Positions 9,289-60,653 of a stretch of DNA of 64,000 nucleotides are shown piece by piece. The stretch comes from Candidatus Kerfeldbacteria bacterium (lineage in GTDB: Bacteria; Patescibacteriota; Patescibacteriia; UBA9570; XYC2-FULL-38-9), in NCBI GenBank assembly GCA_043813585.1, contig JBDRKW010000020.1:129185-193184 (forward strand), written 5' to 3'. The translations under genes and the position numbers were made by a program. The notes below the pieces were generated by a model that worked only from the letters and a program-made list of their open reading frames with translations, did not search any database and was not told the DNA's origin. The first letter of the stretch is position 1. The number at the start of each line of letters is the position of its first letter.

Positions 9289-10567
9289 TATTAAATATAT
9301 TCGCGACCATGCGGAAGATGTGAAGCTGAATGCAACGCATCGCAACATTGATGTTGATATTTCTCTCCTGCTGGAACTCGATGAGCAGCTGCGCAGCCAT
9401 GTACAGCAGGTAGAGCAGCTGCGTGAGGAACGAAATACGAACGCAGAAGCGCTGAAAGGAAGCGAAGATAAAGAATCAAAGGTAGCAAAGGAGCATATTC
9501 AGCGCGGCAAGGAACTGAAAAAGGAAATTGCTGCCAGTGAAGCCGAAATCGAAAAACTTCGCGCAGAATTGCAGCCGCTGCTGGAAGCTGTTCCCAACCT
9601 GACGCATCCGGGCGTGCCTGTCGGCAAAGATGATGCTGATAATAAAGAACTCAAACAGATCGGCGCAATCCCGGAATTTGATTTCGAGATCAAGGACCAT
9701 GTCGAATTAGGCAAATCGCTCGATATCCTTGATTTTGACCGCGGTTCGGAAGTCGCCGGTTCTGGCTTTTACTTTGTGAAGAACGAAGCGGCAGTCATGG
9801 ACCTTGCACTCCAGCAATTTGCGTTCGACCGCTGCCGCGCCAACGGATTCACTCCGATGATCACGCCGGACATTGCATACCAAGAAATCCTGCGCGGTAC
9901 AGGCTTCAATCCAAGGGGGGATGAAAAGCAGATCTATAATATTGAAGGGACGGATTTATCCCTTATTGCAACATCAGAAATCACCGTTGCCGGCTATTTC
10001 AAAGACCGCATCTTCAAGAAGGGCGAACTGGATGCGCCGATAAAAATCGTCGGCCTCTCGCACTGTTTCAGGACAGAGGCGGGTGCGTACGGCCGTGAAT
10101 CACGCGGATTATATCGCGTCCACCAATTCACAAAAGTGGAGATGTTCATTATTTGCAAACCGGAAGATTCGGAAGCGCAGCATGAACATCTGCTGGAGAT
10201 GGAAGAAGAAATATTGCAGGAACTGAAAATCCCGTATCGCGTTGTTGACTGCTGCACCGGCGACCTGGGCGGGCCGGCGTTCAGAAAATACGACATTGAA
10301 GCATGGATGCCGTTCAAGGATTCCTGGGGTGAGGTTACCTCAACATCAAATTGTACGGACTACCAGGCGCGCAGGCTGAACATCAAATATGAAGCAGGTT
10401 CCGGAAAGAAGGAATACGTACACACACTTAACGGAACAGCCGTAGCGCTATCGCGCGTTCCAATTGCAATCATAGAAAACTTCCAACAAAAAGACGGGAC
10501 AGTCGCTATTCCGGATGCACTCCAACCGTATACGTTCGGCGTGACGGCAATTGAATTGAAGAGCTAG
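9281..10567 (+). CDS. serS: Seryl-tRNA synthetase
   Basis: MLDIKYIRDH start, N-terminal coiled-coil arm, class II motifs (GFYFVKNEAA, HCFRTEAG, GTAVALSR). Confidence 0.9.
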   Translation: MLDIKYIRDHAEDVKLNATHRNIDVDISLLLELDEQLRSHVQQVEQLREERNTNAEALKGSEDKESKVAKEHIQRGKELKKEIAASEAEIEKLRAELQPLLEAVPNLTHPGVPVGKDDADNKELKQIGAIPEFDFEIKDHVELGKSLDILDFDRGSEVAGSGFYFVKNEAAVMDLALQQFAFDRCRANGFTPMITPDIAYQEILRGTGFNPRGDEKQIYNIEGTDLSLIATSEITVAGYFKDRIFKKGELDAPIKIVGLSHCFRTEAGAYGRESRGLYRVHQFTKVEMFIICKPEDSEAQHEHLLEMEEEILQELKIPYRVVDCCTGDLGGPAFRKYDIEAWMPFKDSWGEVTSTSNCTDYQARRLNIKYEAGSGKKEYVHTLNGTAVALSRVPIAIIENFQQKDGTVAIPDALQPYTFGVTAIELKS

Positions 10568-11607
10568 TATCCGCGCTTGATGCGCCGTGCAGTTTCAATC
10601 ACTTTTGTCATTGTATATTTCCACGAAAGGGGATAGTCCTGGCAGTGGAGCAGGTCAAGCTGGCTTCCGCCAAATCCCATTTTGAATTTAGAAAGTCCTA
10701 TCCACGGATGCTTCCGCTTGAGGAAAGTGGATACCTGTTTTGATTCGGGAACGATGCCCCAAAAATTATACTGCGTACACCCTCGCTCTTTCGCTTCCTT
10801 GATTGCTTCCCATTGAATCAGGTATGAGGCGGGAATGCGGTTATATTCGGATAACGAAGCTCCATGATGATAGGAAGCCATATCGCCGTAATACATCATT
10901 ATGGCCGCAGAAATGGGCTTATTTTCGTATTCACCGATAAATACCTCCACTTGACCGTCTGTGGCAAATGCACGCACCTGAGCGCGAAAATAGTCGTCTG
11001 TGTAGGGCACAAATCCATGGCGCTGAACTGTTTCCTGGTGAATATCGATAAATGCCTGGACAGATTCGTCACTGGTACTTTTCTTTATCACCACACCGTC
11101 CTTGCTTGCGCGACGAACAAGATTGCGCATGGTTTTTCGCATGCCTTTCATCAGTTCATCTTCGGTGCCCGATATGTCCATCCACCAGATATTTTCCGCA
11201 AGCATGTGAATGGGCGCGTCTTTCCACCCAATGGAATGATAGAGTTCCTTGTTCTCGGGTGAGTTCATGATAAACGGCGATGAGCGTAGAAAATCTGCGT
11301 TCAGTTTCTTACCAAAATCTTTCACGTACGTCGTGAATTCGTTCAGATGCTTCCATTCGTCGCGCCTAAACACAGGGCCATAGGGCATAAACAGATAGGT
11401 GCCCCGCTTAGCTTTCACGAGCGTTGCGAATGCAACTCCGATGAGATCGTCACCCTTAAGGATCTCAAAAAGATATGGGTCCTCACCAACTTTCTCGTGA
11501 AGCTGCTTCATGTTCCATGACTGCAGAAAAGGCGGCCGAGAGACGCTCATTAGGAACTGTTCCCAGCGTTCCTTCGATTCTGATTCTCGAATGATAATGT
11601 CGGACAT
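10564..11607 (-). CDS. FemAB-family aminoacyl-tRNA-dependent peptidoglycan peptidyltransferase (FemX/MurM-like)
   Basis: 347 aa. Sequence pattern of the FemAB family (PF02388-like GNAT duplication): PPFLQSWNMKQ..., YLFMPYGPV, SYLIQWEAIKEAKERGCTQYNFWG. Its stop codon overlaps the serS stop as CTAG. Confidence 0.75.
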   Translation of the reverse strand: MSDIIIRESESKERWEQFLMSVSRPPFLQSWNMKQLHEKVGEDPYLFEILKGDDLIGVAFATLVKAKRGTYLFMPYGPVFRRDEWKHLNEFTTYVKDFGKKLNADFLRSSPFIMNSPENKELYHSIGWKDAPIHMLAENIWWMDISGTEDELMKGMRKTMRNLVRRASKDGVVIKKSTSDESVQAFIDIHQETVQRHGFVPYTDDYFRAQVRAFATDGQVEVFIGEYENKPISAAIMMYYGDMASYHHGASLSEYNRIPASYLIQWEAIKEAKERGCTQYNFWGIVPESKQVSTFLKRKHPWIGLSKFKMGFGGSQLDLLHCQDYPLSWKYTMTKVIETARRIKRGY

Positions 11608-42173: not shown

Positions 42174-43460
42174 ATGAACTATTTTTTATTGCAGCTGGGC
42201 TGCGCTACCAACAAATCCGACGCGGAACGCATTGCGTCTGTTCTTGATTCGGCCGGCTACGCGCCTGTTGCATCTGCAGAAGAAGCCGATCTTGTTGGCA
42301 TTGTCGCCTGCTCCATCCGCCAATCGGCCATTGACCGGGTCTATGACCGAATCCACAAGTGGAATCTGCAGAAGAAGAAGCGTCCTCTGACAACATTTGT
42401 GTCAGGATGCATTCTGGAGGAAGACAAAAAGAAATTCTTAAAACTATTTGATATTGTATTGCCGCTCAACGATGTGACACAGCTGCCGGAATATCTTCGG
42501 CAACAGGGCACTTCTGCCGGTACGGCCTTTTGGGATATCAAACCCCATCATAGCTCCCTATTCAAAGCGCTCGTACCAATTCAAAACGGCTGTAATAATT
42601 TCTGCACCTATTGCGCTGTCCCCTACACGCGCGGCAGGGAGGAATCCAGGCCGTCGAAGGACATCCTCCAGGAGGTGCAAACTCTGCTAAATAACGGTTA
42701 TAAGCAGATTACGCTGTTAGGCCAGAACGTAAACTCGTACGGTCAGGATACGGACGGACAAGAGATTTCGTTTGCCGCTTTGTTAGACCTTATCGGCACC
42801 ATGGCTGACAGTGCTCGCCAGCATACCTGGGTATATTACACGAGTCCCCATCCCGCCGATATGACGCAGGATGTACTCAAAATCCAGTCAAAACACCGGT
42901 CATTGGCAAACTATCTTAATCTGCCGTTACAGTCAGGTAGTGATGATGTATTAAATCGAATGAACCGCCGCTATACGGCTGAAGAGTATTTTTTGATTCT
43001 GGAGGATGCGCATTCGATCTTGCCGGACCTGACAGTCTCCACTGATTTCATTGTTGGTTTTTCCGGTGAAACTGATAACGAATTCCAATACTCTGTTGAC
43101 GCACTCCAGCGTGGCGCGTTTGATATGGCATTCATCGCGCAATATTCCGAACGTCCCGGCGCTCTGGCGGAAAAACGGTTCCCCGACGACATAGCGAAAG
43201 CGGTAAAAAAGGAGCGCGAACGAACACTGACAAGCGTACTGACAATGACTGCAGCTGCTGCAAATGAAAAACTCGTCGGCCAGACCATACCTGCGCTCGT
43301 AGAAACAACAAGCAGAAAACCGGGGAGACTATTAGCGCGGACTGAAGGTTTAAAGTCGGTAGAATTCATCTCTGATGACAAAAAACTGATCGGCGAATAC
43401 GTCAACCTTCGCGTCGACAGCTGCGACGCGTGGCGTCTGTACGGAATGCTTGCCGGCTAA
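42174..43460 (+). CDS. miaB: MiaB/RimO-family radical-SAM methylthiotransferase
   Basis: MTTase N-terminal domain Cys triad (GCATNKSD, VACSIR, SGCI), radical SAM CNNFCTYC, C-terminal TRAM-like domain. Confidence 0.8.
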   Translation: MNYFLLQLGCATNKSDAERIASVLDSAGYAPVASAEEADLVGIVACSIRQSAIDRVYDRIHKWNLQKKKRPLTTFVSGCILEEDKKKFLKLFDIVLPLNDVTQLPEYLRQQGTSAGTAFWDIKPHHSSLFKALVPIQNGCNNFCTYCAVPYTRGREESRPSKDILQEVQTLLNNGYKQITLLGQNVNSYGQDTDGQEISFAALLDLIGTMADSARQHTWVYYTSPHPADMTQDVLKIQSKHRSLANYLNLPLQSGSDDVLNRMNRRYTAEEYFLILEDAHSILPDLTVSTDFIVGFSGETDNEFQYSVDALQRGAFDMAFIAQYSERPGALAEKRFPDDIAKAVKKERERTLTSVLTMTAAAANEKLVGQTIPALVETTSRKPGRLLARTEGLKSVEFISDDKKLIGEYVNLRVDSCDAWRLYGMLAG

Positions 43461-44302
43461 CCAAAATTTTTCGCCATCTCCTCCATTTCCACTACTACTG
43501 CGGGGTCGTACAACGCGTCAGCAGGCAACCCCGACTGGTAGCGTTCTCGTCTGGTGAGTTGCTGGAGGCGGAATGATTTAATCTGGTCATGACCTTCAAT
43601 AATTGTACTCAGCTCAGGTGGCGCAATGGTGATTCTTGTGTCAATGTTGAGATCTGATAAATGATCAAGTTCTTTCAACACTTTTTTGCGAACCTGGTTA
43701 CTAAAACCACGGTCTTTATAATCGGCAACACACAGCATTGGGGAACGATCATTGCCATGCGGCCAATAAAGCTTCAGCCTCATATACTGGAGAAGTGCAT
43801 CTTTTTCTGTCAAATATTTTCTTTCCTTCAAATACTGTACAGAAGACCGGCCCAGGGCTGAGAGGACATTAAGATCAGCTTCATCCCATGTTTCATGTTC
43901 GGCTAGTCCCACTTCCTGAAGGATAAAGCTCATCTCGCCTTCTATGCTCTCAAGAACCACCATATCAACATTCTCCGGTTCATTAGCTTGTAAGAACACT
44001 TCATGGGGTATTATTGCCATTATGTCATGCGGATCGATATGCAATGACTCAAGCCGTCCGAATCGAACAAACTCATCCCAATTCTTCTGATAGGTTCGGT
44101 ATATGCGCGTTACCAAGTTGCCTTTTTGTATGCTATCCGCGTCTGTGAGCTCCCGGTGAACGGTTGCCTCCATGCCTGTTCCACTGTCTTCTTCAGATTG
44201 CCTTGCGCCTATGAGCCGATTTTTGCGCTGCTGTTCAACACGCTTCGTCATGTCAGGCCTGCCAAGCGCCATGAATGTCCTGCCTCTGCGCCCGAAACCC
44301 AT
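43457..44302 (-). CDS. Hypothetical protein (last gene of the pyrimidine operon)
   Basis: No recognisable motifs; 4-nt overlap with pyrF. Confidence 0.4.
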   Translation of the reverse strand: MGFGRRGRTFMALGRPDMTKRVEQQRKNRLIGARQSEEDSGTGMEATVHRELTDADSIQKGNLVTRIYRTYQKNWDEFVRFGRLESLHIDPHDIMAIIPHEVFLQANEPENVDMVVLESIEGEMSFILQEVGLAEHETWDEADLNVLSALGRSSVQYLKERKYLTEKDALLQYMRLKLYWPHGNDRSPMLCVADYKDRGFSNQVRKKVLKELDHLSDLNIDTRITIAPPELSTIIEGHDQIKSFRLQQLTRRERYQSGLPADALYDPAVVVEMEEMAKNFG

Positions 44303-44303
44303 A

Positions 44304-45062
44304 CTATTCTTCTTCCGAATACTCTTCCCATGCAGCATGCCGGTACTGTTCTGCCGCTTTCACCGGATCATCTGCCTTATATATGCCCCGACCGACGATA
44401 ATCACGTCAGTACCTGACTGCATCGCTTCTCGTGGCGTTTGATATTGCTGGCCGAGCGCATCTCCTGTCGCTTCAAGATTGACGCCAGGCGTAAACACGA
44501 GCATTCCCTTGGGAACATCTGCACTTCCCTTGCCCACGAACCCGATAACGAATTCATCATGCGCGGCAGCCCATTTATAAGCTGTCTTTGTATACTTCCC
44601 TGTTGCTAGCGAGCCTTTTGAACTCATTTCCGCTAGCAACAGCAATCCCCGGCCTTTCGGCAGCCCTACCTCCTTTAATCCCTCGATAACCCCCTCTCCA
44701 GGGATAATATGTGCGTTGGTTATGTCAGCCCAGTCCGAAATATGGTAGATACCCTTCTCATACTGCAATTTAACCGTATTGCCGATGTCGGCAAATTTCC
44801 GGTCCTCAAAAATCAGAAAGTTGTGTTCATGGGCCAGTTTTAACAGATCACTAACCACATCATCGCTGAAATCTTCCATCGTATCGATGTGCGTCTTAAG
44901 AACGCATATTTGCGGACCCAGCGCATCTGCCAGAGCCAAAAACTCCTTAGACCTTGTTACATCCAGTGATAAGCACAAGTTGCTCCGTTTTGAATGGATG
45001 ACCTGTACCAATTTCTTCGCTACCGGATTTTTTACTTCTCCCAGTTTTGAGATTATTCCCAT
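44304..45062 (-). CDS. pyrF: Orotidine-5-prime-phosphate decarboxylase, eukaryote (URA3)-like type
   Basis: NLCLSLDV, KTHID, EDRKFADIGNTVKLQY, DWADITNAH, GSLATGKYTK, DFVIGFVG, GDALGQQY and IIVGRG blocks. Confidence 0.85.
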   Translation of the reverse strand: MGIISKLGEVKNPVAKKLVQVIHSKRSNLCLSLDVTRSKEFLALADALGPQICVLKTHIDTMEDFSDDVVSDLLKLAHEHNFLIFEDRKFADIGNTVKLQYEKGIYHISDWADITNAHIIPGEGVIEGLKEVGLPKGRGLLLLAEMSSKGSLATGKYTKTAYKWAAAHDEFVIGFVGKGSADVPKGMLVFTPGVNLEATGDALGQQYQTPREAMQSGTDVIIVGRGIYKADDPVKAAEQYRHAAWEEYSEEE

Positions 45063-45081: not shown

Positions 45082-46041
45082 TCAACGCATATTTATCGCG
45101 GAACGTGGCTCTTTATTGCTCTCCGGGCACATTTCTTGGAATCGCTCGATCTCTAATGTGATCATCCCTGCAATTTCCTTGGACAGCTCAGATATTTCAA
45201 GGGCGGCAATCATATCTTCCTTTGTCAACCCCATCTGCTCAACAATATAGCCAAAATCATATCGGTCATAATAAGAATTCATGGAAGCTGCGGCCCATTC
45301 GCCGGATGTTGCGACGGGAAATGTTTCATTTATTTCCTTGATGTAAGCTGCATATGCAGCTGACGCGAGCAATTCACTTTCATTAGCTTTTTTAATATAC
45401 CGGTCAGTTGTACGCCGAATTTCATCCATCTGCCGGACTAAAGTATGGTCGATAATCCAACCCATGACAGACGAAATAAGATATGGATAATCATTCTCCT
45501 TAAGCGCAACATCAAAGCGCTCATAGGCATCGCAAGAATCCATGCCTGTTGCCTCTACGCACTGGACCATCTCATCTGAATGGTTGGGATGCTGCACATG
45601 TGCAGCTTCATGCATAAGATCATCCGGCGCTAACGCGTCAATATCTCCGACTAAAATATGATCATCCTCAACTGTCTTCGTACCGAATGTTACGAGTCTT
45701 GCTGCTGCGTTTTCTTCATCCCCAAAATCAAATACATAGACATTATCATGTTGAATAATTATTTCGAGGTCAGCTAGCGTCTGTTGCAAGTCAGCTATAA
45801 GTTCGTCATTATTGTCAATTGGCTCTCCCCTCCCGCTAAACAGCGGCTGCGCGCGCTTCATTAATTCTACAAAAGGAACGAATTCTATCTTCGCTATGCG
45901 AAGTATTTCTAGAATGCGTTCTTTGTTCGCCTGATCTAAGGGGGCACAACCGCTTAAGGTTGGCATTGCACCCGCAGCAGTAGCGCCCAGGCACTGCAAC
46001 AACCTCCGCCGCGTCATCCCTTCTTGCGGCAGATTACTCAT
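45082..46041 (-). CDS. Hypothetical Tat-signal lipoprotein-like protein with HExxH motif
   Basis: RRRLLQCLGATAAGAMPTLSGC (twin-arginine plus lipobox-like Cys) and HEAAH. Start chosen at MSNLPQ to avoid overlapping pyrE. Confidence 0.45.
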   Translation of the reverse strand: MSNLPQEGMTRRRLLQCLGATAAGAMPTLSGCAPLDQANKERILEILRIAKIEFVPFVELMKRAQPLFSGRGEPIDNNDELIADLQQTLADLEIIIQHDNVYVFDFGDEENAAARLVTFGTKTVEDDHILVGDIDALAPDDLMHEAAHVQHPNHSDEMVQCVEATGMDSCDAYERFDVALKENDYPYLISSVMGWIIDHTLVRQMDEIRRTTDRYIKKANESELLASAAYAAYIKEINETFPVATSGEWAAASMNSYYDRYDFGYIVEQMGLTKEDMIAALEISELSKEIAGMITLEIERFQEMCPESNKEPRSAINMR

Positions 46042-46675
46042 ATCCCATCGCGCTTCCCCATGCTTGCGGATCTTTATTCCACGCAAGGATCTTTTCTTGT
46101 TCGTCCTTCTTGATATAGCCGTTTGCCGAAGCGACATCCACGAGCGTCGAAAAATTCGTCAATGTATGCAGCTGTATATCCGCTTCGGAAAAAGCAGCTC
46201 GCGCCTTTTGCATCTCATAGGTAAAGATAGCGATACAATCGATTACTACGCCGCCTTCTTCGCGCACTGCAAGGCCGGCATCAACCGAACTGCCTCCCGT
46301 GCTGATAAGATCTTCCACAATGAGCACGGTCTGGCCTTTCTTTATAACGCCTTCGATGCGGTTTTTCTTTCCGTGGCCTTTTTCCTTCCCGCGGATATAG
46401 ATCATGGGTTTCTTCAAACGATCTGCGATCCATGCCGCATGCGGTATGCCGGCAGTTGCCGTTCCTCCCACAACATCAAATTCCAAATTCTGCTCACGTA
46501 TCAAATCAAGAAATGCCTGTATAACAACTTCGCGCTTGTCGGGGTAAGAGATGACGAGCCGGTTATCACAATAGATCGGGCTGAGAATGCCTGACGTATA
46601 CCGAAACGGTTCCTCCGTGTTTAATGCCACTGCCTTGATGTCCAGCAGTAATTTTGCGATTTCTTCTGAAGCCAT
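46034..46675 (-). CDS. pyrE: Orotate phosphoribosyltransferase
   Basis: PRPP-binding loop VLIVEDLISTGGSS; FDVVGGTATAGIPHAAW. Confidence 0.85.
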   Translation of the reverse strand: MASEEIAKLLLDIKAVALNTEEPFRYTSGILSPIYCDNRLVISYPDKREVVIQAFLDLIREQNLEFDVVGGTATAGIPHAAWIADRLKKPMIYIRGKEKGHGKKNRIEGVIKKGQTVLIVEDLISTGGSSVDAGLAVREEGGVVIDCIAIFTYEMQKARAAFSEADIQLHTLTNFSTLVDVASANGYIKKDEQEKILAWNKDPQAWGSAMGYE

Positions 46676-46677
46676 AA

Positions 46678-47505
46678 CTAAAATTCGTGTTTAATGCCTT
46701 GCTTATCCCTATGATACTTGCCGAACTCAATAATGCGTAGCGCTTTTGCTCCGGAGATCACAGGCCCTTTCTGGCACGTCGGGAAACCGTCGTCGTCCAC
46801 GCAGCAATTTCCGCAAATCCCGAATCCGCATTTCATGTAGCGCTCAAGCGAAATTTGCGTAGCGACCCCGTAAGTTTTGCCAAGCTCAGCGACTTTCTTC
46901 TGCATCAATTCAGGGCCGCATGCGCATACGACCACATCCTTCCGTTTCCGGTCGCTCATGTCATTAAGTATTTTATCGAGAATATCCGTTGCGAAACCTT
47001 TCACGCCCCGCGAACCGTCATCTGTTGCCGCATGCACTTTTGCGCCCGCTTTTTTCGCGCGCTTTTCGAAAAGCAGATGTTCCCTGCTTCGCGCGCCCAC
47101 GATAAAATCAATCTTGCATTTTTCTTCGGCAGCACGATCTGCTAAAAACGCGAGTGGCGCCGCGCCATATCCTCCGCCAACCGTTATAACATGCTGTTTC
47201 GGTTTCCATGCATAATCCGTGCCGTACGGACCGCTGATTCCAACTTTATCCCCTTTCTTCAGCTTGAACAGCGTCTGGGTCGCTTTACCAAGTTCAAATA
47301 TTGAAAGCTGGAATGAATCCCCCTCGTCTCCGCCGATGGAAAACGGTTTTTGATCGACGCCAGGAATCCACAGCATCACAAACTGCCCCGGCTTGGACTT
47401 TAGCTCATAATCAAAATAGAACGTACGCACTTTTGCCGTCTCCTGGACGATCTCCGCAATAGGAACCATCACCGGCGTATCGGCTCTGTCAGGATTACTC
47501 TTCAT
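46678..47505 (-). CDS. pyrK: Dihydroorotate dehydrogenase electron-transfer subunit
   Basis: FAD/NAD-binding ferredoxin-reductase fold plus a C-terminal [2Fe-2S] Cys cluster (CGFGICGNCC...C). Confidence 0.85.
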   Translation of the reverse strand: MKSNPDRADTPVMVPIAEIVQETAKVRTFYFDYELKSKPGQFVMLWIPGVDQKPFSIGGDEGDSFQLSIFELGKATQTLFKLKKGDKVGISGPYGTDYAWKPKQHVITVGGGYGAAPLAFLADRAAEEKCKIDFIVGARSREHLLFEKRAKKAGAKVHAATDDGSRGVKGFATDILDKILNDMSDRKRKDVVVCACGPELMQKKVAELGKTYGVATQISLERYMKCGFGICGNCCVDDDGFPTCQKGPVISGAKALRIIEFGKYHRDKQGIKHEF

Positions 47506-48421
47506 GCGCCATGCCGATTAGTTCTTTAACTTCTGAAATTCCTTCTTTCCCCATCCGTTCCTGCATCTCTTTTGCGATCAGAGACATCGTCTTCTCGCCC
47601 CGGTAATAAAATGCCGTTCCGACTCCTACCAACGTTGCGCCAGACATCATCATCTGGATAGCATCGTCGCCGGTCGTCACACCACCAGTCCCGATAATCG
47701 GGATAGATACTGCTTCATATATATCCCACACTGCTTTCAGCGCTATAGGTTTCAGTGCCGGACCGGATAATCCTCCGCTCTTATTTGCAAGAACAGGGCG
47801 CCGCGCTTCAATGCTGATCTCCATTCCCAAAGCCGTGTTCACAGCCGTAATCGCATCCGCGCCGGCAGCCTCCGCAATTTTTGCAAGCTCGCCTATCTGC
47901 CATGTATTTGGCGATAGTTTTACGGAAACGGGTACATTTGAATTCTTCTTTACCAGCTTGGTAATTTTCTCTATTGATTCCGGGTCATGCGAAAACGGAC
48001 GGTCATACAGATGGCTTGCGTGCGGACATGAAATATCGATCTCCAGTAAATCTATCGGCGCCTCACGAATCTGTCTGGCTGCCTCGCCAAACTCCTCCCA
48101 TGTCCGCCCATAGATTGATCCGATGAGGACACCGGAGCATAATTCTTGAAATTTACTCAGCTCAGGAAGAGACGCCTCGATTCCCGGCCCCGGCAACCCG
48201 ACGGCGTTTAAGAAATATTCATCCTGGCCCAGCATAGTCGGATTAGGATTTCCTTCTATTGCCTCAACAGTGACCGATTTCATCGTTACACCGCCTGCGC
48301 CATTTTTAACGACGCGCGCCAGTGATGCGCCCGTTACGCCCAGAATACCCGACGCTAAAACAAGCGGATTTTCAAATTTCGAGCCTAGCGCTTCTATTCC
48401 TAACGAGGTTTGTTTATTCAT
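47495..48421 (-). CDS. pyrD: Dihydroorotate dehydrogenase (class 1B) catalytic subunit
   Basis: NPLVLASGILG, the catalytic Cys region CPHAS and TIM-barrel DHOD motifs. Confidence 0.85.
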   Translation of the reverse strand: MNKQTSLGIEALGSKFENPLVLASGILGVTGASLARVVKNGAGGVTMKSVTVEAIEGNPNPTMLGQDEYFLNAVGLPGPGIEASLPELSKFQELCSGVLIGSIYGRTWEEFGEAARQIREAPIDLLEIDISCPHASHLYDRPFSHDPESIEKITKLVKKNSNVPVSVKLSPNTWQIGELAKIAEAAGADAITAVNTALGMEISIEARRPVLANKSGGLSGPALKPIALKAVWDIYEAVSIPIIGTGGVTTGDDAIQMMMSGATLVGVGTAFYYRGEKTMSLIAKEMQERMGKEGISEVKELIGMAHEE

Positions 48422-48473: not shown

Positions 48474-49418
48474 TTAATCGTTTCGGTGACGGTCCAACCA
48501 TACAAGCAAACCGTTTTGCCCGTGCATCCTATTTTCCGCCTGGTCCAATATAACGGCATTGCTGTGATCCATTGCATCCCTTGAGATTTCATAACCGATG
48601 TGGCACGGCATGCAGTGCATAATTTTTGCCTGAGGAGCATAGGTATCGATTGTTTCTGCATTCAGCTGGAACGGCTTGAACATTTCCATTCGCATATTAT
48701 ACTCTTCTTTGAACTCTTCCTTCACCTGTCCGTTCTCGAAAAATTCCATATCCACCCACGTATCGGTATGCACAAAGTCCGCGCCGGTCAATCCTTCCTT
48801 CAGATTTGTCGTGTAGGTCACCAAGCCGGTATCGTTTGCCATTTTATTCAACTCTTCATCAACGCTGATCTCGTGCACTTTGGGTGCAATAATGGCAATT
48901 TCAATCCCGAGCTTTGTTGCCGCAAGCTTCAACGTGTTCGAAACATTATTCTCAATGCCTAACCACGCAATCTTCTTAATATTTTCCAATCCGCCAGCTT
49001 TCTCAATCATGGTAAGAAAATCACTCAGTGCCTGGCACGGATGGTATTTTTCACTGCACCCGTCTATGACGGGAATCCTGTTAAACGATGCTGCCACTTC
49101 CACATCCTCCGCGCGCATCGCGCGCATCATCAGAATATCGCCAAACCGCATCACAGCCTGGATCTCATCCTTATAATCAGTCAGTGAAAATTGCGACGTT
49201 TTTTGGTCAAGGAATATCCCATGCCCACCGAGCCTGGTCATACCCGCCTCAAATGATAACCTCGTTCGCGTGGACCCTTTCTGAAACAGTATGATAGTTG
49301 TCTTCTGCTTCAATGCGTCCTGGTACGTTTCAGGGTTCGCCTTGATATCCGACGCAAGTTCAAGAATCTCCTTAAGTTCATCGGCAGAAACGTCTTTGAG
49401 ATGGATAAAATGTCTCAT
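48474..49418 (-). CDS. Ornithine-carbamoyltransferase-family transcarbamylase with non-canonical substrate loop
   Basis: STRTR, HPCQ and HCMP (OTCase-type rather than the ATCase HPLP) and IENNVSNTL (OTCase DxNNVxNS-like). The ornithine-binding SMG loop reads HTDTWVDMEF. Confidence 0.7.
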   Translation of the reverse strand: MRHFIHLKDVSADELKEILELASDIKANPETYQDALKQKTTIILFQKGSTRTRLSFEAGMTRLGGHGIFLDQKTSQFSLTDYKDEIQAVMRFGDILMMRAMRAEDVEVAASFNRIPVIDGCSEKYHPCQALSDFLTMIEKAGGLENIKKIAWLGIENNVSNTLKLAATKLGIEIAIIAPKVHEISVDEELNKMANDTGLVTYTTNLKEGLTGADFVHTDTWVDMEFFENGQVKEEFKEEYNMRMEMFKPFQLNAETIDTYAPQAKIMHCMPCHIGYEISRDAMDHSNAVILDQAENRMHGQNGLLVWLDRHRND

Positions 49419-49427
49419 ATGCGTATA

Positions 49428-50612
49428 TTAAACTGCTTTGTTATCAATTATTGTAAATAACGGCCAGCCCTGGAGCTCCATCCCCTCGTACGGCGTCCAT
49501 CCGCATTTTGTTTTCAGCCGCTCTTTTGACACGGTCTGCTTCTTCGCCATATCAACGACTGTTCCGCACTGACCTAACGACGGCAGGTTGAATATGGCTA
49601 TCGGCTTGGTATGCATTGCATCGATTAATCGGTCTAAACCGATTTTCCCCTCGTTCACCGCATTCAGCATTAAAGATAAAACAGTATCAATCTCCGGTAT
49701 GCCTGCAGGCGCTGTTTCGTAACCACTCTCCTTCTCCGCCGGTAAATGCGGCGCATGGTCAGTGCTGATCACATCGATTGTTCCGTCCCGTAATCCCGCC
49801 CATAGCGCTTCATTATCCTCTGCAGTTCGCAGCGGCGGATTCACCTTCACATAATCACCCCACTGTTCATAGTGTAATTCATTCAGGAACAAATGATGTG
49901 GCGTCACTTCCGCAAATACGGGCAGTCCGTCATTTTTTGCTTCACGTATCAGATCAACCTCTTCTTTTGTAGAGATATGCGCAATAACTGTCGGCTTATT
50001 AAACTCGCGCACCAATTCAAGCACCATCTTTACAGCGCTTACTGCAACAGCGCGATCTCGAACGCGAGAATGCTTATCACTACCGGAATAATCCGCAAGC
50101 TTCTCGGCATTTTCACTGATCATCACGTCATCTTCAGCATGAACAACAATGACCTTATCCCATTGTTCGTATATTCTGCGTAGCTCATTCTCAGAATCAA
50201 CAAGCAGATCACCGGTTGAAGAACCGACATATATTTTCAGCCCGACCACATCATCGGCAATTCCATTATCCGGTACCACAGTGCCGGATGCGCCTAAATT
50301 GAAAAACGCATGCAAGCCATACTTCTTTTGGCTATGTACTAGAGACTTTTTTTGCTTATAGGTGGCAGCATCAACCATGGCCGGCGTATTATTCGGCATG
50401 TCGATGACCGCGCATATTCCTCCAAACACAGCGGCCTCCGACCCTGTGACCCAGTCTTCTTTCTGCTCTGCACCGGGCACTCGAAAATGAACATGACAAT
50501 CAACAAGGGCTGGCAATAAAACCAACCTCCGCGCTGTTACCTTTTGCTTCACATCCTCCCAATCGCCGTCATCCAGCCATTGCTGCAATTCTTCCTTTGA
50601 TAATTCGGCCAT
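49428..50612 (-). CDS. pyrC: Dihydroorotase
   Basis: DCHVHFRVPG metal-binding motif, amidohydrolase fold, 394 aa. Confidence 0.8.
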   Translation of the reverse strand: MAELSKEELQQWLDDGDWEDVKQKVTARRLVLLPALVDCHVHFRVPGAEQKEDWVTGSEAAVFGGICAVIDMPNNTPAMVDAATYKQKKSLVHSQKKYGLHAFFNLGASGTVVPDNGIADDVVGLKIYVGSSTGDLLVDSENELRRIYEQWDKVIVVHAEDDVMISENAEKLADYSGSDKHSRVRDRAVAVSAVKMVLELVREFNKPTVIAHISTKEEVDLIREAKNDGLPVFAEVTPHHLFLNELHYEQWGDYVKVNPPLRTAEDNEALWAGLRDGTIDVISTDHAPHLPAEKESGYETAPAGIPEIDTVLSLMLNAVNEGKIGLDRLIDAMHTKPIAIFNLPSLGQCGTVVDMAKKQTVSKERLKTKCGWTPYEGMELQGWPLFTIIDNKAV

Positions 50613-51058
50613 TACTTGATCTCGTCAGGACTAAACAGCTTTTCGCAATAATGGCACTTCACCTGCATCTCATTATTTTTAAACAAGGGGTAAAATTTAG
50701 GCTGTTCTGGATCCATATTCGTTATGCATTTCGGATTCGGGCACTTGCCGATATTCTCAAACACTTCCGGCAATTCAGCCGTATATTTCTTTACGATCTT
50801 GAAATCGCGAATGATATTGATCGTGGCTTCCGGCGCAATGAGAGCAACTTGGTTGACGTCCTCCGGTGTTAACTCTTTATCCTCGATCTTAATCAGATCT
50901 TTCTTCGCCCGCTTCTTTGATTTGAAATTCGCGCCCATGGTTACAAAATTGCCGCTCTCAATCAGCTTTAACATACGTATCAGACGTATTGCCTGGCCGG
51001 CCGGGATATGATCAATAACCGTTCCGTTCTTGATTGTAAATACTTTAAATGCTCGCAT
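50612..51058 (-). CDS. pyrI: Aspartate carbamoyltransferase regulatory subunit
   Basis: MRAFKVFTIKNGTVIDHIPAGQAIRLIRML, C-terminal zinc domain CPNPKC...CHYC. Confidence 0.85.
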   Translation of the reverse strand: MRAFKVFTIKNGTVIDHIPAGQAIRLIRMLKLIESGNFVTMGANFKSKKRAKKDLIKIEDKELTPEDVNQVALIAPEATINIIRDFKIVKKYTAELPEVFENIGKCPNPKCITNMDPEQPKFYPLFKNNEMQVKCHYCEKLFSPDEIK

Positions 51059-51063: not shown

Positions 51064-51981
51064 TTATTTTACTTTGCCTAATACTAATGAAAGAACCGCC
51101 TGACGGGCAAAGAGACCGTTCTCAGCCTGTTGAAAATAGTATGCGTATTTCGTATTATCGACAGCCGGATCAATTTCATTGACGCGCGGCAGCGGATGCA
51201 TCACTTTCATATTCGGCTTTACTTTCTCCAGCATGTCCGTTGATAAAACATAAACATTTTTTACGCGTTCATATTCTAACGGATCCGGGAATCGTTCTTT
51301 CTGAATGCGCGTCATATAGATGATATCAACCTTATTGATGACGCTTTCAATTTTGTCATGAAGGCTAAATTTAATGTTGCGCTCCTTCAGATACTGCTGG
51401 ATATGCATTGGCATCTGGAGTGCATCCGGTGCAACAAAATAGAGCCGCGCATCGTAATGCGCCAGCGCCTGCGCCAGCGAATGCGTCGTGCGTCCGAATT
51501 TCAAATCGCCTACCAACGCGATTGAGAGGCCTGTCAGTTTTTTCTGCGACTCTTTAATGCTAAATAAATCCAACAGCGTTTGCGTCGGATGCTGATTTGC
51601 CCCATCTCCGCCGTTAATAACCGGTTTGTCGGTCGCTTCCGCAGCCAGCCGTGCCGAACCTTCAGCCGGGTGCCGCATGGCAATCACGTCTGCATACAAC
51701 CCAATATTCTTGATAGAATCATGCAGTGATTCACCTTTTGCAGTTGATGAAACGCCTGCTTCGGCAAAACCGATAATGCTCATACCTAACCGTTCCGCAG
51801 CCGTTTCAAACGACAAACGCGTTCGTGTCGACGGTTCGTAGAACAGGCTTGCCATCACATAGTCCTTTAAGAGTGACGGCTTTGGAGCCTTTTTCATTTT
51901 TTCCGCTACCTGCAGGATATGGTTAATTTCCTGTTTCGTCAGGTCCGTAATGGAAATGATGTCTCTTCCCTTGAAATTCAT
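51064..51981 (-). CDS. pyrB: Aspartate carbamoyltransferase catalytic subunit
   Basis: STRTR, HPTQ-region, VGDLKFGRTTHSL and HPLPR motifs. Confidence 0.9.
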   Translation of the reverse strand: MNFKGRDIISITDLTKQEINHILQVAEKMKKAPKPSLLKDYVMASLFYEPSTRTRLSFETAAERLGMSIIGFAEAGVSSTAKGESLHDSIKNIGLYADVIAMRHPAEGSARLAAEATDKPVINGGDGANQHPTQTLLDLFSIKESQKKLTGLSIALVGDLKFGRTTHSLAQALAHYDARLYFVAPDALQMPMHIQQYLKERNIKFSLHDKIESVINKVDIIYMTRIQKERFPDPLEYERVKNVYVLSTDMLEKVKPNMKVMHPLPRVNEIDPAVDNTKYAYYFQQAENGLFARQAVLSLVLGKVK

Positions 51982-55000: not shown

Positions 55001-55261
55001 TCCGTCAGGCCGTTCCTTCTCAATAACCTGCCTGACCTCATCCGAACGAACGGGAAGAAAGTACGTCTCATCCGCCATATCTTTATCCGTCTGGACGGTG
55101 GCGATATTCGGGTTGATGAGAACCGTTGCAATTCCCTCTTCTTTCATCGCTTTAATCGCCTGCGATCCGGAGTAATCAAATTCACCGGCCTGGCCGATGC
55201 GCAAACCTCCTGAACCCAGGATCAATACTTTTTTCGGTTTTGAAACAGAAGAGGATGTCAT
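52055..55261 (-). CDS. carB: Carbamoyl-phosphate synthase large subunit
   Basis: 1068 aa, duplicated ATP-grasp halves plus a C-terminal MGS-like domain. Confidence 0.9.
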   Translation of the reverse strand: MTSSSVSKPKKVLILGSGGLRIGQAGEFDYSGSQAIKAMKEEGIATVLINPNIATVQTDKDMADETYFLPVRSDEVRQVIEKERPDGILLSFGGQTALNVGLELDKRGILQRFGVRVLGTPTYAIENTEDRDLFAKQLSTINVDTARSFAVRTIGEAKEAGRELGYPLMIRSAYSLGGLGSGMIRNEAELERRLKEVFSSVQQVLLEEYLGGWKEIEYEVVRDEYDNCVTVCNMENFDPMGIHTGESIVIAPSQTLTNEEYHGLRTIALKTVRHLGIVGECNIQYALNPKNGEYRVIEVNARLSRSSALASKATGYPLAWVAAKLSLGYSMLDVQNTITGKTQACFEPALDYVAIKIPRWDLTKFKAASRRIGSEMKSVGEVMAIGRTFEEAIQKAARMLSIGADGVVGGDIVIDDVQDEIMHPTDRRLFALCMAMRSGKTAEELHRETKIDRWFLEKLFRIVRFEKNIKRAKKLTPSIMREAKQFGFSDKQIADLRGSTERAIRARRKKMGVMPVVKQIDTLAGEFPSQTNYLYMTYNGSENDIRKGRKSVAVLGSGPYRIGSSVEFDWCCVEAVKTASIKGFQTVMINCNPETVSTDYDTCDRLYFEELSWERVMDIHDFESPHGVIVSMGGQTPNNLAIPLHEAGVKILGTSAEHIDQAEDRNKFSSLLDDLGVEQPEWRELTTMSQAVAFAKKAEYPVLIRPSYVLSGAAMNIAFNEEGLTQYLEEASLVSKDHPVVISKFIKDAREVEIDGVAQNGELVIYAFTEHIENAGVHSGDATVVTPPQKTYLETIRKIKRITKNILQELQITGPFNIQFLAKGNTLRVIELNLRASRSFPFVSKATKYNFIEMATKSMLGEDIRGEYNTLDLDYVAVKAPQFSYSRIKGADPVLYVEMGSTGEVACFGDSYHEAVLKALMAADLRLPKKNILVAIGPEEQKARLSKYIRQLHELGFNILATEHTAAYLREKERIPVKSLYKVSQKKQPNVLQYLEQGQIDFIINIPRHYNRKTVTDGYQIRRMAIDHNVAMISNAQLAKTFIQAFYRLKKGEIALEPKSWNEYEKSS

Positions 55262-56328
55262 TGTTTCTTGACCAGTGAGATAAAATCATCAAACAGGTAC
55301 TCCGTATCTTCCGGGCCCGGGTTTGCCTCGGGATGAAACTGCACGGAAAAATGCGGTTTGCTCGCATGGCGAATTCCTTCAACTGTGCCGTCATTTGCAT
55401 TGGTGAACCATACATGCCACCACTTTGGCATGGTTGACTCGCGGACGGCAAAACCATGGTTCTGCGTAGTGAGGTAGCAGCGTCCGCTCATTCGGTCAAC
55501 GCATGGCTGGTTTTGCGACCGATGCCCGTATTTTAGCTTGTACGTCTTCGCTCCTGCTGCCAATCCGAGAATCTGCGAACCAAGGCATATCCCAAATATT
55601 GGCTTGGGCGAGTGTAATACTGTTTTCAGATGCGCTATCGTTGCATCAGCCATCTGCGGGTCTCCCGGTCCGTTTGAAATAAATAATCCATCCCAATCTT
55701 CATTGGTGAAATCATAATCCCATGGAACGCGCTTCACAGTTACGCCGCGTTCTGTCAATTTTCGTAAAATGCTCAATTTCATGCCACAATCAACAGCAAT
55801 CACTTTCTTTTTACCGCTACCGTACGTTATTGAACGGGCAGGGCTCACTTCTGCGACTAAATTTCGCTCATTCGGATCAGCAATGTACTTTTTTCCGCGC
55901 GAAGAACCAACCACAATCTGCCCGAGCATGACACCGTGTTCCCGTAGTTTCTTTGTCACTGCCCTCGTATCAATACCGTAAATCGCAGGAACGGAAGATT
56001 CATCCAGCCATTCATGCAGTGACTTTATCGCACCTGCATGTGAATAATCATCTGAATAATACTGGACGATCAAACCCTGGATTTTAACGCCGTCTGATTC
56101 AAACGGGCCCTTAGAAACGCCGTAGTTCCCCACAATTGGATAGGTCATCACTAGAATCTGGTCCTTGAACGACGGGTCGGTAAATGCTTCCGGATACCCG
56201 ACCATGCCGGTCCCGAAGACGATCTCTCCCTGTGTATTGGTCGCCGATCCGAAAGAATATCCCTCAAATCGCGTCCCGTCCTCAAGTACGAGCGCCGCGC
56301 GTATTCTGTTATTCACACCATTCGTCAT
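55258..56328 (-). CDS. carA: Carbamoyl-phosphate synthase small (glutamine amidotransferase) subunit
   Basis: CPSase small-chain N-domain plus a class I GATase domain (GICLGHQ-like ICLGSQ, HPE). Confidence 0.9.
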   Translation of the reverse strand: MTNGVNNRIRAALVLEDGTRFEGYSFGSATNTQGEIVFGTGMVGYPEAFTDPSFKDQILVMTYPIVGNYGVSKGPFESDGVKIQGLIVQYYSDDYSHAGAIKSLHEWLDESSVPAIYGIDTRAVTKKLREHGVMLGQIVVGSSRGKKYIADPNERNLVAEVSPARSITYGSGKKKVIAVDCGMKLSILRKLTERGVTVKRVPWDYDFTNEDWDGLFISNGPGDPQMADATIAHLKTVLHSPKPIFGICLGSQILGLAAGAKTYKLKYGHRSQNQPCVDRMSGRCYLTTQNHGFAVRESTMPKWWHVWFTNANDGTVEGIRHASKPHFSVQFHPEANPGPEDTEYLFDDFISLVKKQ

Positions 56329-58564: not shown

Positions 58565-59190
58565 TTCTTTATTTGATTCATGATTAAATCAATGATCTTT
58601 TCTTCATTTTCCTCTTTTGGTCCGTCGGTCGACAATATTTCCCAATTGTCGTTTTCCTCAGCCAGCTTCAGAAAATACACGCGAACCTTTTTATGGAATT
58701 CCAACTCTTCTTTATCCATCCGGTTCAGCTCTTCCGGGCCCTCTTCTTTGCGCTGAATGCCGGTTTCCGGATCAATATCAAGATACAACACCATATCAGG
58801 ATCTAGTCCATTGCGCGCATACGCATCCATTTCTTGGATCAGCTCGGTTTCTCTCAGTTCGCGTCCGCCGAGCTGGTAGGCAAATGTCGAACCTGAAAAC
58901 CGATCGCACAACACAACTTTCCCTTCTTCCAATGCAGGCCTGATGACCTCTTCAACATGCTGCGCCCGATCTGCCAGGAATAAAAACAGCTCCGTTCTTG
59001 GGAATACGGAGTGTTTATTTTCATAAAGAATTGCCTTACGGATTACTTTTCCCACTTCTGAACCGCCTGGTTCGTGCGTTTCCAATACGTCATAACCTTC
59101 ATTTCGAAGATACTCTGCAAGCGCCGAAGCATGGCGGGTTTTCCCGCTTCCCTCTCCCCCTTCAAACACGATAAACGTTCCTTTTTTCAT
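58561..59190 (-). CDS. tmk: Thymidylate kinase
   Basis: P-loop FIVFEGGEGSGKT, DR(F/Y) motif, 209 aa. Confidence 0.85.
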   Translation of the reverse strand: MKKGTFIVFEGGEGSGKTRHASALAEYLRNEGYDVLETHEPGGSEVGKVIRKAILYENKHSVFPRTELFLFLADRAQHVEEVIRPALEEGKVVLCDRFSGSTFAYQLGGRELRETELIQEMDAYARNGLDPDMVLYLDIDPETGIQRKEEGPEELNRMDKEELEFHKKVRVYFLKLAEENDNWEILSTDGPKEENEEKIIDLIMNQIKK

Positions 59191-60653
59191 TATTGCGGTA
59201 GCTTGCAGTCAATGTCGCCGTACGGTAACGGTCGGTCTTGAGTATACTGAATTCCCAACCTGTTTGCAATTTCTGCCTTCTGCAGTTCTGCGCCCAAATC
59301 AAAAGCATGGATGGGTACGGAAACGCCCATTTCTGAAGCAATCTGCTCGAATAGTCCTATAGCTGTTTTTCCCGAATAGGTCGAAATTTTCCTGCCTTCA
59401 GGCGTCAGGTGGGTTACCTCAATGGTTTTTTCCGGTGTCGTCTTTATAACGTAATTGCCCCGGGGATCCTGTTCGCACGGCAACGCCGGATAATGCTTGC
59501 CGAGTATATCCTGAACCTGCACGTAACTCTCCTGGTAAATGTGCGCAGAGCCGGAAATCGTCGTAAGCGGCCCCATTTCAAGGCCGATCGCATCTGCTAT
59601 CTCTTTTTGCAATGTACGGAATGCAAGCGTATTCTCCGGCCACGCGCGAAACATATCATTAGAACGAAGGTACGCCGTTACATGCAGTTTGTCATATTTT
59701 ACAACCGCCTGCACCAGGTTGAGGCAAGGCGGATGCTCCGACTCGTCATCAGTATCAACATTCCATAACACGCCAACCGCCCTGCGCGACCACGGCTCTT
59801 TTTTCAACTTCTCGATAATGGATGCAATCTGATCTTTCCCACCAAAATCGCGCATCCTCATGCCGTAAGTATAGCTCAGAGTCGGCTCCATTTTTGCCGT
59901 CATCACCTGGGGCAAATAGTTCTCAAAATGCTCTTTTGTAAACGGAAAATAATCCACAAAATTGATGTTGTCCGGACACTCATCAGTAATAACGGCCGCA
60001 ACATTCAATAATTCCCTCTGCGTGCCGCTCGTATAATGAGAAGTTTTCTCTTCGCCAAACCGCATAATTCCATACAGCAGCTTCAACCAGACATCCGCAA
60101 CTTTCTCGCCGCGGTAGGTATACACCGAACCCTCTGACGGATACCATTCCGATTCAATTTTCGGTTCCGGATACAGCGTCGCCTCGGCCCACGGTTCTGC
60201 CGGCCGGCCGGCCTCGTCAATGGCTTTTTGCACTATGTCCGCCTTTAATTCCCCACGCATATCCACAACGTCCACATTCCTACGAAATAATTCTACAGCT
60301 TCACGCGGAATCTCTTTCTCCACCTGCGATTCTTCTTTTCCAATTACCTCATTTTTTTCGTTGATACCATTTTCAATAAGTTTCGATAATGTATCTGCAG
60401 AACCGATTTTATCCTGGCCGCAAAGCACAATAGTCCGAAGAGTAGGGTTTGCAAGAACATTCCGCAGCAATGGATTGATACCATCGTTGGAATACAGCTG
60501 CCCCATAACCTGATACGATTCATCGCGCAATTTGGACGCAAACGCCTCTTTTGGCGTCCATAATGTAGCAACGCCAACACTCGATGAGCGGTTGCCCACA
60601 ATCAGGTTATCTGCGTAATAAATTGGCCATTCATTCAGTGGCATATCACACAA
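59190..60653 (-). CDS. Thymidylate-synthase-family (ThyA/dNMP hydroxymethylase fold) protein with about 170-aa N-terminal and about 95-aa C-terminal extra domains
   Basis: Central region aligns to ThyA (VWLKLLYGIMRFGEEK, SRRAVGVLWN, PPC catalytic Cys, LRSND, PENT with Asn at the E. coli N177 position, SAHIY). H of PCH is Leu. Flanking domains are unrecognised. Confidence 0.6.
   Translation of the reverse strand: MCDMPLNEWPIYYADNLIVGNRSSSVGVATLWTPKEAFASKLRDESYQVMGQLYSNDGINPLLRNVLANPTLRTIVLCGQDKIGSADTLSKLIENGINEKNEVIGKEESQVEKEIPREAVELFRRNVDVVDMRGELKADIVQKAIDEAGRPAEPWAEATLYPEPKIESEWYPSEGSVYTYRGEKVADVWLKLLYGIMRFGEEKTSHYTSGTQRELLNVAAVITDECPDNINFVDYFPFTKEHFENYLPQVMTAKMEPTLSYTYGMRMRDFGGKDQIASIIEKLKKEPWSRRAVGVLWNVDTDDESEHPPCLNLVQAVVKYDKLHVTAYLRSNDMFRAWPENTLAFRTLQKEIADAIGLEMGPLTTISGSAHIYQESYVQVQDILGKHYPALPCEQDPRGNYVIKTTPEKTIEVTHLTPEGRKISTYSGKTAIGLFEQIASEMGVSVPIHAFDLGAELQKAEIANRLGIQYTQDRPLPYGDIDCKLPQ

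Follow-up and report, generated by a model that had tools for sequence, protein, structure and literature searches.

Genes for carbamoyl-phosphate synthase (CPS) lie beside a transcarbamylase gene in the argCJBD-carAB-argF operon of Bacillus subtilis, and the equilibrium of the ornithine transcarbamylase (OTCase) reaction strongly favours the formation of citrulline. The motif DxxxSMG is used to tell OTCases from other transcarbamylases, and the 240s/SMG loop is a recognised determinant of second-substrate specificity (PMC4581275). In Thermococcus kodakarensis, which has no CPS, the OTCase gene arcB and not arcC is needed for pyrimidine prototrophy and supplies carbamoyl phosphate (PMC13260591). 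Here we describe a transcarbamylase gene, called X, in a 64,000-nucleotide stretch of a Candidatus Kerfeldbacteria bacterium (assembly GCA_043813585.1, contig JBDRKW010000020.1, positions 129,185 to 193,184), which is referred to as the window. Gene X is an open reading frame (ORF) of 314 codons with an ATG start, which occupies exactly positions 48474-49418 of the minus strand, and its translation matches both halves of the aspartate/ornithine carbamoyltransferase fold in Pfam (OTCace_N, 8e-39, and OTCace, 1e-36). An identical protein is on record from a metagenome-assembled genome of Candidatus Kerfeldbacteria. Gene X is embedded in a pyrimidine (pyr) cluster and carries an altered DxxxSMG loop. 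We read it, at about even confidence, as a functional enzyme of the trimer type in the OTC branch that would interconvert ornithine and carbamoyl phosphate with citrulline and phosphate by means of a rebuilt substrate-closing loop.

The residues of X were compared with Escherichia coli ArgI by alignment, using the literature numbering. On the carbamoyl-phosphate side S55-T58, R106, H133, Q136 and R319 are kept as S49-T52, R99, H126, Q129 and R297, and the Gln of the 80s loop is kept as well (Q82 as Q76). The ornithine-binding side chains named in PMC4581275 are also present, K53 as K47, N167 as N158, D231 as D219, M236 as M224 and C273 as C269; in OTCases the side chains of Asn167 and Asp231 hold the alpha-carboxylate and alpha-amino groups of ornithine (PMC4581275). 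The OTCase motif FxKxSxRT, with Lys at its third position, is found as F45-Q-K47-G-S49-T-R-T52 (in FQKGSTRTR, aa 45-53) and HPxQ as HPCQ. At the place of DxxxSMG the protein reads D219-T-W-V-D223-M224-E225, within HTDTWVDMEF (aa 217-226), and HCLP reads HCMP.

All motifs quoted in the earlier note (STRTR, HCMP, NNVSN, HTDTWVDMEF and HPCQ) are present in this gene. The change from SMG to DME is real and no alignment error, as HMMER alignments to solved OTCases and MAFFT agree on it. HPCQ, which had been taken for a deviation, is the form seen most often in about 150 OTC-like representatives. HCMP had been listed as a signature; a canonical SMG-type OTCase inside an arg cluster (locus L045) has it too. 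Two further differences had escaped notice: Ile stands where 'GDxNN' has its Asp, and 10 residues are added to the loop behind the SMG position. These residues come as two 5-residue insertions in the HMMER alignment to the Mycobacterium tuberculosis OTCase, with MAFFT in agreement.

Conservation of these features was surveyed in the best 120 of thousands of matches, with 64-85% identity to X. In this set the SMG position holds DME or NME in 120 of 120 sequences (95 DME, 25 NME), HCMP and STRTR are found in every sequence, and G-x-x-NN without the Asp in all but one. An alignment of 26 family members shows S49, T50, R51, T52, R99, H126, Q129, C269 and R297 to be invariant, together with K47, S49-R53, N158 and D219. 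The residues that bind carbamoyl phosphate do not vary in this alignment, which marks X as an enzyme maintained by selection rather than a copy in decay. Across the sequences of the tree described below, loss of D163 (the Asp of 'GD') is paired with gain of D, N or E at position 235 (99 + 22 concordant and 10 discordant sequences), with most of the signal coming from one clade. This is a hint only that an acidic group may have moved between the loops, which would fit compensation better than a new pocket.

The top-scoring NCBIfam models for X are OTCase models, and all of them stay under their curated cut-offs: NF001986 gives 277.4 bits (cut-off 306), TIGR00658 gives 260.6 bits (cut-off 280.85) and the remaining OTC models fall still further below. 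Scores for the other classes are 211 bits for putrescine transcarbamylase (PTCase; TIGR04384, cut-off 500), 133 for acetylornithine transcarbamylase (AOTCase; 288), 130 for aspartate transcarbamylase (ATCase; 263) and 46 for YgeW (500). The best solved relatives by sequence are the OTCases of M. tuberculosis (PDB 2i6u, 186 bits) and Pyrococcus furiosus (184 bits), at about 40% identity; PTCase reaches about 146 bits. When 1.84 billion cluster representatives were searched, the X family came out as a single 50%-identity cluster (463 bits), followed by a drop to 46% identity (276 bits); the nearest canonical SMG OTCase has 44% identity to X. No paper on the X clade was found in the literature.

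In a neighbour-joining tree of 133 sequences rooted on ATCase, the X family falls in a [D/N]M[E/Q] clade beside the canonical SMG/HCLP/GDxNN OTCases; this clade also takes in the proteins P0122 and P0142 and further sequences that have HD[L/M]P and an insertion of only 5 residues. Out of 60 bootstrap replicates the X family is recovered in 60, X with P0122 and P0142 in 58, and the whole [D/N]M[E/Q] clade in 43. On these sequences the X family is a distinct and conserved sister clade of the canonical OTCases. The suspicion that X is a non-canonical transcarbamylase thus held up, and tight clustering with bona fide OTCases, which the earlier note had named as the outcome that would overturn it, was not seen. 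The AlphaFold2 model of X (pLDDT 92, pTM 0.91) has an unknotted fold of the OTC branch, and in it the loop insertion takes the form of a short hairpin that leads into a helix (block pLDDT 83-93). Foldseek matches this model to OTCase and PTCase structures alike at TM 0.85-0.87, with PTCase marginally first (0.87), and the two classes are not separable by fold.

The sister sequences show changes of their own. P0122, the nearest sister (locus L137, 8001-8945), also has DME and HCMP, and TEKGTTRTG replaces FQKxSTRTR, so that the Ser of the SxRT motif is Thr and the following Arg is lost. A farther sister group (P0124, P0125, P0133-P0135, P0150 and P0171) has DM[E/Q], the 5-residue insertion and HD[L/M]P in place of HCLP; P0124 and P0134 of this group are stand-alone genes. 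The HDxP signature is otherwise known from diaminopropionate and diaminobutyrate transcarbamylases (DPTCase/DBTCase; PMC4581275), and the group may represent a further uncharacterised specificity.

Several named classes were tried for X and rejected. For PTCase, X has Lys47 and not Gln, its loop reads DMEF and not (Y/W)(G/W)(V/L/I)x, and it ends level with the OTCases without the C-terminal helix of about 20 residues. For the knotted classes, AOTCase, succinylornithine transcarbamylase (SOTCase) and YgeW, neither the proline-rich loop nor the extended 120s loop is seen in the alignment or the model, and the best fold matches are unknotted. These are classes which the earlier note had offered as possible homes, and X shows the defining features of none of them. 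DPTCase/DBTCase would have (T/S)RWQ(T/S)(T/M)G and HDLP, and X has TDTWVDME, with the Asp kept, and HCMP. The HPLP and RxQxER (240s loop) signatures of ATCase are not found in X. A genuine ATCase, already recognised in the earlier note, is encoded 1.2-2.6 kb away by pyrB and pyrI, both above their cut-offs. A pseudo-enzyme is opposed by the invariance of all catalytic residues in the X family.

The gene neighbourhoods were collected from 44 family loci of species-representative genomes, 4 loci from metagenomes and L132/L133, and the context was tallied over 49 loci. Neighbouring genes were labelled by BLAST against labelled references, and key identities were checked at curated cut-offs: ArgG 558 and 518 bits (cut-off 334), ArgH 311 and 334 (279.5), carbamate kinase 396 and 380 (358) and YgeW 603 (453). 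When metagenomes were scanned with the family alignment, the generic STRTRLSFE pattern dominated the matches; the scan added the 4 family loci, and 76 ordinary OTC-like loci were kept as a control. The family members belong mostly to Patescibacteria (Magasanikbacteria, Kerfeldbacteria, Pacebacteria, Portnoybacteria), together with Altiarchaeota, Woesearchaeota and other archaea. The archaeal members (L002, L012, L033 and L040-L044, from Altiarchaeota, Woesearchaeota and other metagenome-assembled genomes) have 59-65% identity to the bacterial protein, which suggests that the gene has passed horizontally between Patescibacteria and archaea of the DPANN type or Altiarchaeota in shared habitats.

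X lies inside a pyr cluster in 24 of the 49 loci, either between pyrC and pyrD or after pyrF. Of these 24 clusters 4 have carAB, as the window does, and in L048 a carbamate kinase is part of the cluster (pyrB-pyrI-carbamate kinase-pyrC-X-pyrD...); in the other 19, no carAB and no carbamate kinase lies within 10 kb. Eight further loci carry X and carbamate kinase as a two-gene module, in Altiarchaeota in the order X-carbamate kinase-LOG-like. One of these eight is L013 (7816-10939), where YgeW (603 bits), carbamate kinase and X stand together, so that two different transcarbamylases have a single carbamate kinase between them. X is the sole gene of the conserved gatB...miaB slot in L027 and L037, where the pyr genes are lost. 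The earlier note had proposed a side reaction linked to pyrimidine metabolism; with the family also present in the carbamate kinase modules and alone, a role specific to that pathway is not borne out. A carbamoyltransferase of the NodU/CmcH type (Carbam_trans_N/C), also dependent on carbamoyl phosphate, adjoins X in L036 (8258-9988), L039 and L050. In L139-L141 (about 8552-10945), from another Patescibacteria species, the gatB...miaB-thrS slot contains only pyrB-pyrI-carbamate kinase, with no pyrC-F and no X. Pairing of ATCase with carbamate kinase alone is unusual; the other pyr genes may be elsewhere, or these genes may form a module of carbamoyl-aspartate, carbamoyl phosphate and ATP.

Genes for the enzymes that use citrulline accompany X in three independent arrangements, counting L137. 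The order gatB-argG-argH-pyrB-pyrI-pyrC-X-pyrD-pyrK-pyrE-pyrF is found in L030 and L132/L133, and the carA-carB pair of the window fills exactly the slot between gatB and pyrB that argG-argH holds in L030 and L132. L020 has pyrC-argG-X-pyrD-pyrK, in a cluster without pyrB/pyrI and carAB, and L137 has argG-argH-P0122-ArgE/DapE-like. The argG of L020 (8359-9981; 518 bits), directly upstream of X, encodes an argininosuccinate synthase fused to the MGS-like allosteric domain of the CarB C-terminus (CarB about 929-1050); it may be the scar of a deletion or else a new fusion with a regulatory role. The lack of arginine genes near X, pointed out in the earlier note, holds for the window, where tblastn with reference proteins detected no argG, argH, argB/C/D/J, carbamate kinase, YgeW or NodU-type gene in the 64 kb; a general absence of an arginine link is not borne out by these relatives. 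Most X loci show no argG/argH and no carbamate kinase. Neither arginine deiminase nor arginine synthetase turned up near any X locus, and no agmatine deiminase or other enzyme of ureido compounds recurs beside X. Among the 76 control loci the commonest neighbours are argD (24) and argG (17). Across Patescibacteria (Magasanikbacteria, Uhrbacteria, Peregrinibacteria and Gracilibacteria; L128-L133) an argG-argH pair with no upstream arginine genes in view is common, which implies that organisms generally said to lack amino-acid biosynthesis form arginine from citrulline or ornithine.

What all contexts of X have in common is carbamoyl phosphate, with CarAB and carbamate kinase as its sources, PyrB and the NodU-type enzyme as its other consumers, and ArgG/ArgH as users of citrulline, the product expected of X. 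As this compound is shared by all contexts, X therefore most likely carries out an OTCase-type reaction on that pool. We infer both the substrate pair and the direction. Ornithine/citrulline is the most likely pair because the side chains for the alpha-amino-acid end of ornithine are kept, because the clade adjoins the canonical OTCases and because L137 has no other candidate for supplying citrulline. The substrate loop would have been rebuilt by D/N223 in place of Ser235, Glu in place of Gly237, the added 10-residue hairpin and the lost Asp of 'GDxNN'. In the window X would be co-transcribed with CarAB, the source of carbamoyl phosphate, and with PyrBI, its other consumer, and the cluster may thus act as a carbamoyl-phosphate operon with two transcarbamylase outlets. 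Citrulline formation would be the default direction here, because CarAB belongs to the same transcript and because of the known equilibrium of OTCase, and the product would feed ArgG/ArgH if these are encoded elsewhere in the genome. The reaction is reversible, and in the many relatives without carAB X may run the other way, from citrulline to carbamoyl phosphate for PyrB or carbamate kinase.

Several observations weigh against X as a variant OTCase. The change in DxxxSMG is conserved, all curated OTCase models leave X under their cut-offs, and the window has no arg genes. An anabolic role would need a distant source of carbamoyl phosphate in the 19 pyr clusters that have neither carAB nor carbamate kinase close by. 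The link to argG/argH is limited to 3 of the 49 family loci plus the sister, and with a chance of about 2% (a rough estimate) for three such same-operon events it gives modest support. In addition, Patescibacteria usually lack amino-acid biosynthesis.

The same loop is the starting point of another explanation, along the lines of the earlier note, in which the acidic D/N-M-E loop and the hairpin create a specificity for an amine other than ornithine, which X carbamoylates or whose ureido form it phosphorolyses. We regard this as unlikely, though a serious candidate. It has in its favour the role of the 240s/SMG loop in second-substrate specificity and of DxxxSMG as the OTCase discriminator (PMC4581275), the invariance of the variant loop over a large clade, the scores under the curated OTCase cut-offs, the marginal first place of PTCase in Foldseek, the lack of arg genes at most loci and the NodU-type neighbour in three of them. 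Against this, X retains D231, N167 and K53 as well as the Cys of HCLP, and because the side chains for the alpha groups of ornithine are among them, X probably continues to act on an alpha-amino acid that bears a distal amine. X also lacks the features that define PTCase, DPTCase/DBTCase and the knotted classes, links to the citrulline users ArgG/ArgH recur, and a recurring partner such as agmatine deiminase is missing. A wholly new transcarbamylase activity, with a substrate other than ornithine/citrulline, widespread in Patescibacteria and DPANN archaea and feeding or draining the pyrimidine pool of carbamoyl phosphate, seems to us rather improbable; for instance, organisms without CPS might use it to free carbamoyl phosphate from a ureido compound of their environment.

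It is also possible, though doubtful, that X phosphorolyses citrulline which is imported or derived from arginine, and that the carbamoyl phosphate goes to PyrBI for pyrimidines or to carbamate kinase for ATP; on this view the pyr pathway would start with X, with CarAB as a second source in the window. The 19 pyr-X clusters without a nearby source, the 8 loci with X directly beside carbamate kinase and the retention of X alone in L027 and L037 fit this, and L030 and L132 can be read as citrulline-utilisation operons in which ArgGH makes arginine and X makes carbamoyl phosphate. In L013 X accompanies a bona fide YgeW, which is presumed to act catabolically (PMC4581275), and arcB of T. kodakarensis is an experimental precedent (PMC13260591). 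However, the operon of the window itself encodes CarAB, which makes a second source superfluous, and the equilibrium lies on the side of citrulline. Carbamate kinase in or beside pyrBI (L048, L139-141) suggests that this enzyme, and not X, supplies carbamoyl phosphate in relatives without carAB, and neither arginine deiminase nor arginine synthetase accompanies X. A non-catalytic paralogue acting as structural or regulatory partner of the pyrimidine enzymes, for which the inactive dihydroorotase-like subunit of Pseudomonas ATCase is a model, is very improbable. The position between pyrC and pyrD and the degenerate TTRTG of the sister P0122 would agree with it, but every catalytic and carbamoyl-phosphate-binding residue of X is invariant and the family also stands beside carbamate kinase where no pyr genes are present. 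Taken together, the interpretation in the earlier note holds in part: X is a non-canonical transcarbamylase of an uncharacterised clade, but the evidence favours a variant OTCase working on a shared carbamoyl-phosphate pool over a new side reaction of pyrimidine metabolism.

The features of the window on which these readings are based are listed in Table 1. The cluster is co-directional and tight, in the order carA-carB-pyrB-pyrI-pyrC-X-pyrD-pyrK-pyrE-ORF-pyrF, and every pyr gene of it scores above its curated NCBIfam cut-off. The stop of pyrC and the start of X are 9 nt apart, and 52 nt lie between the end of X and the start of pyrD. No terminator-like site flanking X was found on the minus strand, and promoter-like sites occur at chance level (18 found against 20.8 expected), with nothing that separates X from its neighbours. 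Used as a reference, the window carA recovers carA beside carB in L003, L011, L023 and L032, and the C-terminal region of the window carB matches the CarB allosteric MGS domain found in L020.

Table 1. Positions of gene X, its sequence motifs and the genes of the surrounding cluster in the window (cut-offs are the curated NCBIfam values).
Feature	Position	Strand	Basis or remark
X, unknotted OTC-branch transcarbamylase with variant second-substrate loop (predicted)	48474..49418	-	ORF; Pfam; NCBIfam OTCase models best but under cut-off; AlphaFold2 model
STRTR (aa 49-53), phosphate-binding motif, within FQKGSTRT	49260..49274	-	Lys at position 3 is OTCase-type; meaning of motif from PMC4581275
HPCQ (aa 126-129), carbamoyl-binding HPxQ motif	49032..49043	-	H126, P127 and Q129 invariant in family alignment
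GIENNVSN (aa 154-161)	48936..48959	-	Alignments; Ile155 where 'GDxNN' has Asp; N158 equals ArgI N167
TDTWVDME (aa 218-225), counterpart of DxxxSMG	48744..48767	-	D219 (D231) and M224 (M236) kept; S235 to D223, G237 to E225
FFENGQVKEEFKEEY (aa 226-240), stretch giving the loop 10 residues more than canonical OTCases	48699..48743	-	Alignments
HCMP (aa 268-271), HxLP motif	48606..48617	-	Cys and Pro kept, Leu to Met (L274 to M270); 120/120 homologues
carA, carbamoyl-phosphate synthase small subunit, first gene of cluster	55258..56328	-	Sequence and position
carB, carbamoyl-phosphate synthase large subunit, 1068 aa	52055..55261	-	ORF; C-terminal region matches the MGS domain of L020
pyrB, aspartate carbamoyltransferase catalytic chain	51064..51981	-	TIGR00670, 375 bits (cut-off 237)
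pyrI, ATCase regulatory chain	50612..51058	-	TIGR00240, 175 bits (cut-off 149)
pyrC, dihydroorotase	49428..50612	-	TIGR00857, 325 bits (cut-off 279)
pyrD, dihydroorotate dehydrogenase class 1B catalytic subunit	47495..48421	-	NF005574, 316 bits (cut-off 269)
pyrK, electron-transfer subunit of dihydroorotate dehydrogenase	46678..47505	-	NF000796, 286 bits (cut-off 224)
pyrE, orotate phosphoribosyltransferase	46034..46675	-	TIGR00336, 135 bits (cut-off 107)
pyrF, orotidine monophosphate decarboxylase	44304..45062	-	TIGR01740, 203 bits (cut-off 92)

The ORF between pyrE and pyrF (45082-46137, minus strand) has no match in Pfam or NCBIfam and, as called, shares about 100 nt with the 3' end of pyrE; read from an internal start it gives MTRRRLLQCLGATAAGAMPTLSGC, which resembles a twin-arginine signal with a lipobox. 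Another ORF (43457-44338) follows pyrF, and a homologue is found in the same place after pyrF in L003. At 59190-60653 (minus strand) a thymidylate-synthase-like protein of 487 aa is encoded, which has three domains: an N-terminal part like MtrA (tetrahydromethanopterin methyltransferase subunit A), a central partial Thymidylat_synt domain and a C-terminal pterin-binding DUF4346. Its counterparts in other loci are a plain ThyA of 290 aa followed by dihydrofolate reductase, and the three-domain form may hint at a non-folate pterin cofactor. The remaining genes of the window are the housekeeping set of a small-genome bacterium (frr, mreBCD, PBP2, lysS, serS, gltX, dnaE, thrS, gatB, tmk, nusG and others), and tRNA and Rfam scans of the window gave no match.

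Ultra-small and mostly symbiotic organisms of this kind are thought to be without amino-acid and often without nucleotide synthesis. Hundreds of genes of Patescibacteria and DPANN that are automatically named 'ornithine carbamoyltransferase' lack the defining motif and score below the curated thresholds, which leaves the name an assumption. The X clade occurs with ArgG/ArgH, with carbamate kinase or CarAB and with a full pyr cluster, and this suggests a compact economy of carbamoyl phosphate, which would span arginine salvage from ornithine or citrulline and pyrimidine synthesis with or without CPS. This has a bearing on what ultra-small cells must take from their hosts or neighbours. If X is an OTCase, the 'invariant' SMG loop is replaceable; if it is not, a new specificity is at hand.

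Among known systems, PTCase (TIGR04384; PDB 4a8p/3txx) shares with X the unknotted fold of the OTC branch, a 230s loop that is not SMG, the top Foldseek match and carbamate kinase as a frequent partner. It differs in the Gln of FxQxSxRT, the loop motif and the C-terminal helix, none of which X has, and no agmatine deiminase neighbour was seen for X. DPTCase and DBTCase likewise belong to the OTC branch and have an altered 240s-loop motif, and the farther HD[L/M]P sisters of X share HDxP with them; X itself keeps D231 and has HCMP, and not (T/S)RWQ...G with HDLP.

The argCJBD-carAB-argF unit of B. subtilis resembles the window in joining carAB and an ornithine-type transcarbamylase, which brings the production and the use of carbamoyl phosphate together in a single unit. 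The window, unlike it, is a pyrimidine cluster which holds both PyrB and X, and the upstream arginine genes (argA-E/J) are missing from it. The arcB of T. kodakarensis (PMC13260591) is an OTC-type enzyme tied to de novo pyrimidine synthesis without CPS, which may be compared with the pyr-X clusters lacking carAB. The Thermococcales-type OTCase is however canonical (that of P. furiosus, 1a1s, has SMG), whereas X has the variant loop and the window has carAB.

The closest comparison is with OTCase itself (ArgF/ArgI anabolic, ArcB catabolic; EC 2.1.3.3; TIGR00658/NF001986). X departs from it in Dxxx[D/N]ME, in 'G[I/V]xNN', in the loop longer by 10 residues, in HCMP, in the score under the cut-off and in its separate clade, and it is usually at home in a pyr cluster, whereas the control OTC loci lie mostly beside argD or argG. 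The two are alike in the unknotted fold and the length, in FxKxSxRT and HPxQ, in the Cys of HCLP and in N167, D231, M236, R106, R319 and Q82, and relatives accompany argG/argH, carAB and carbamate kinase in some loci.

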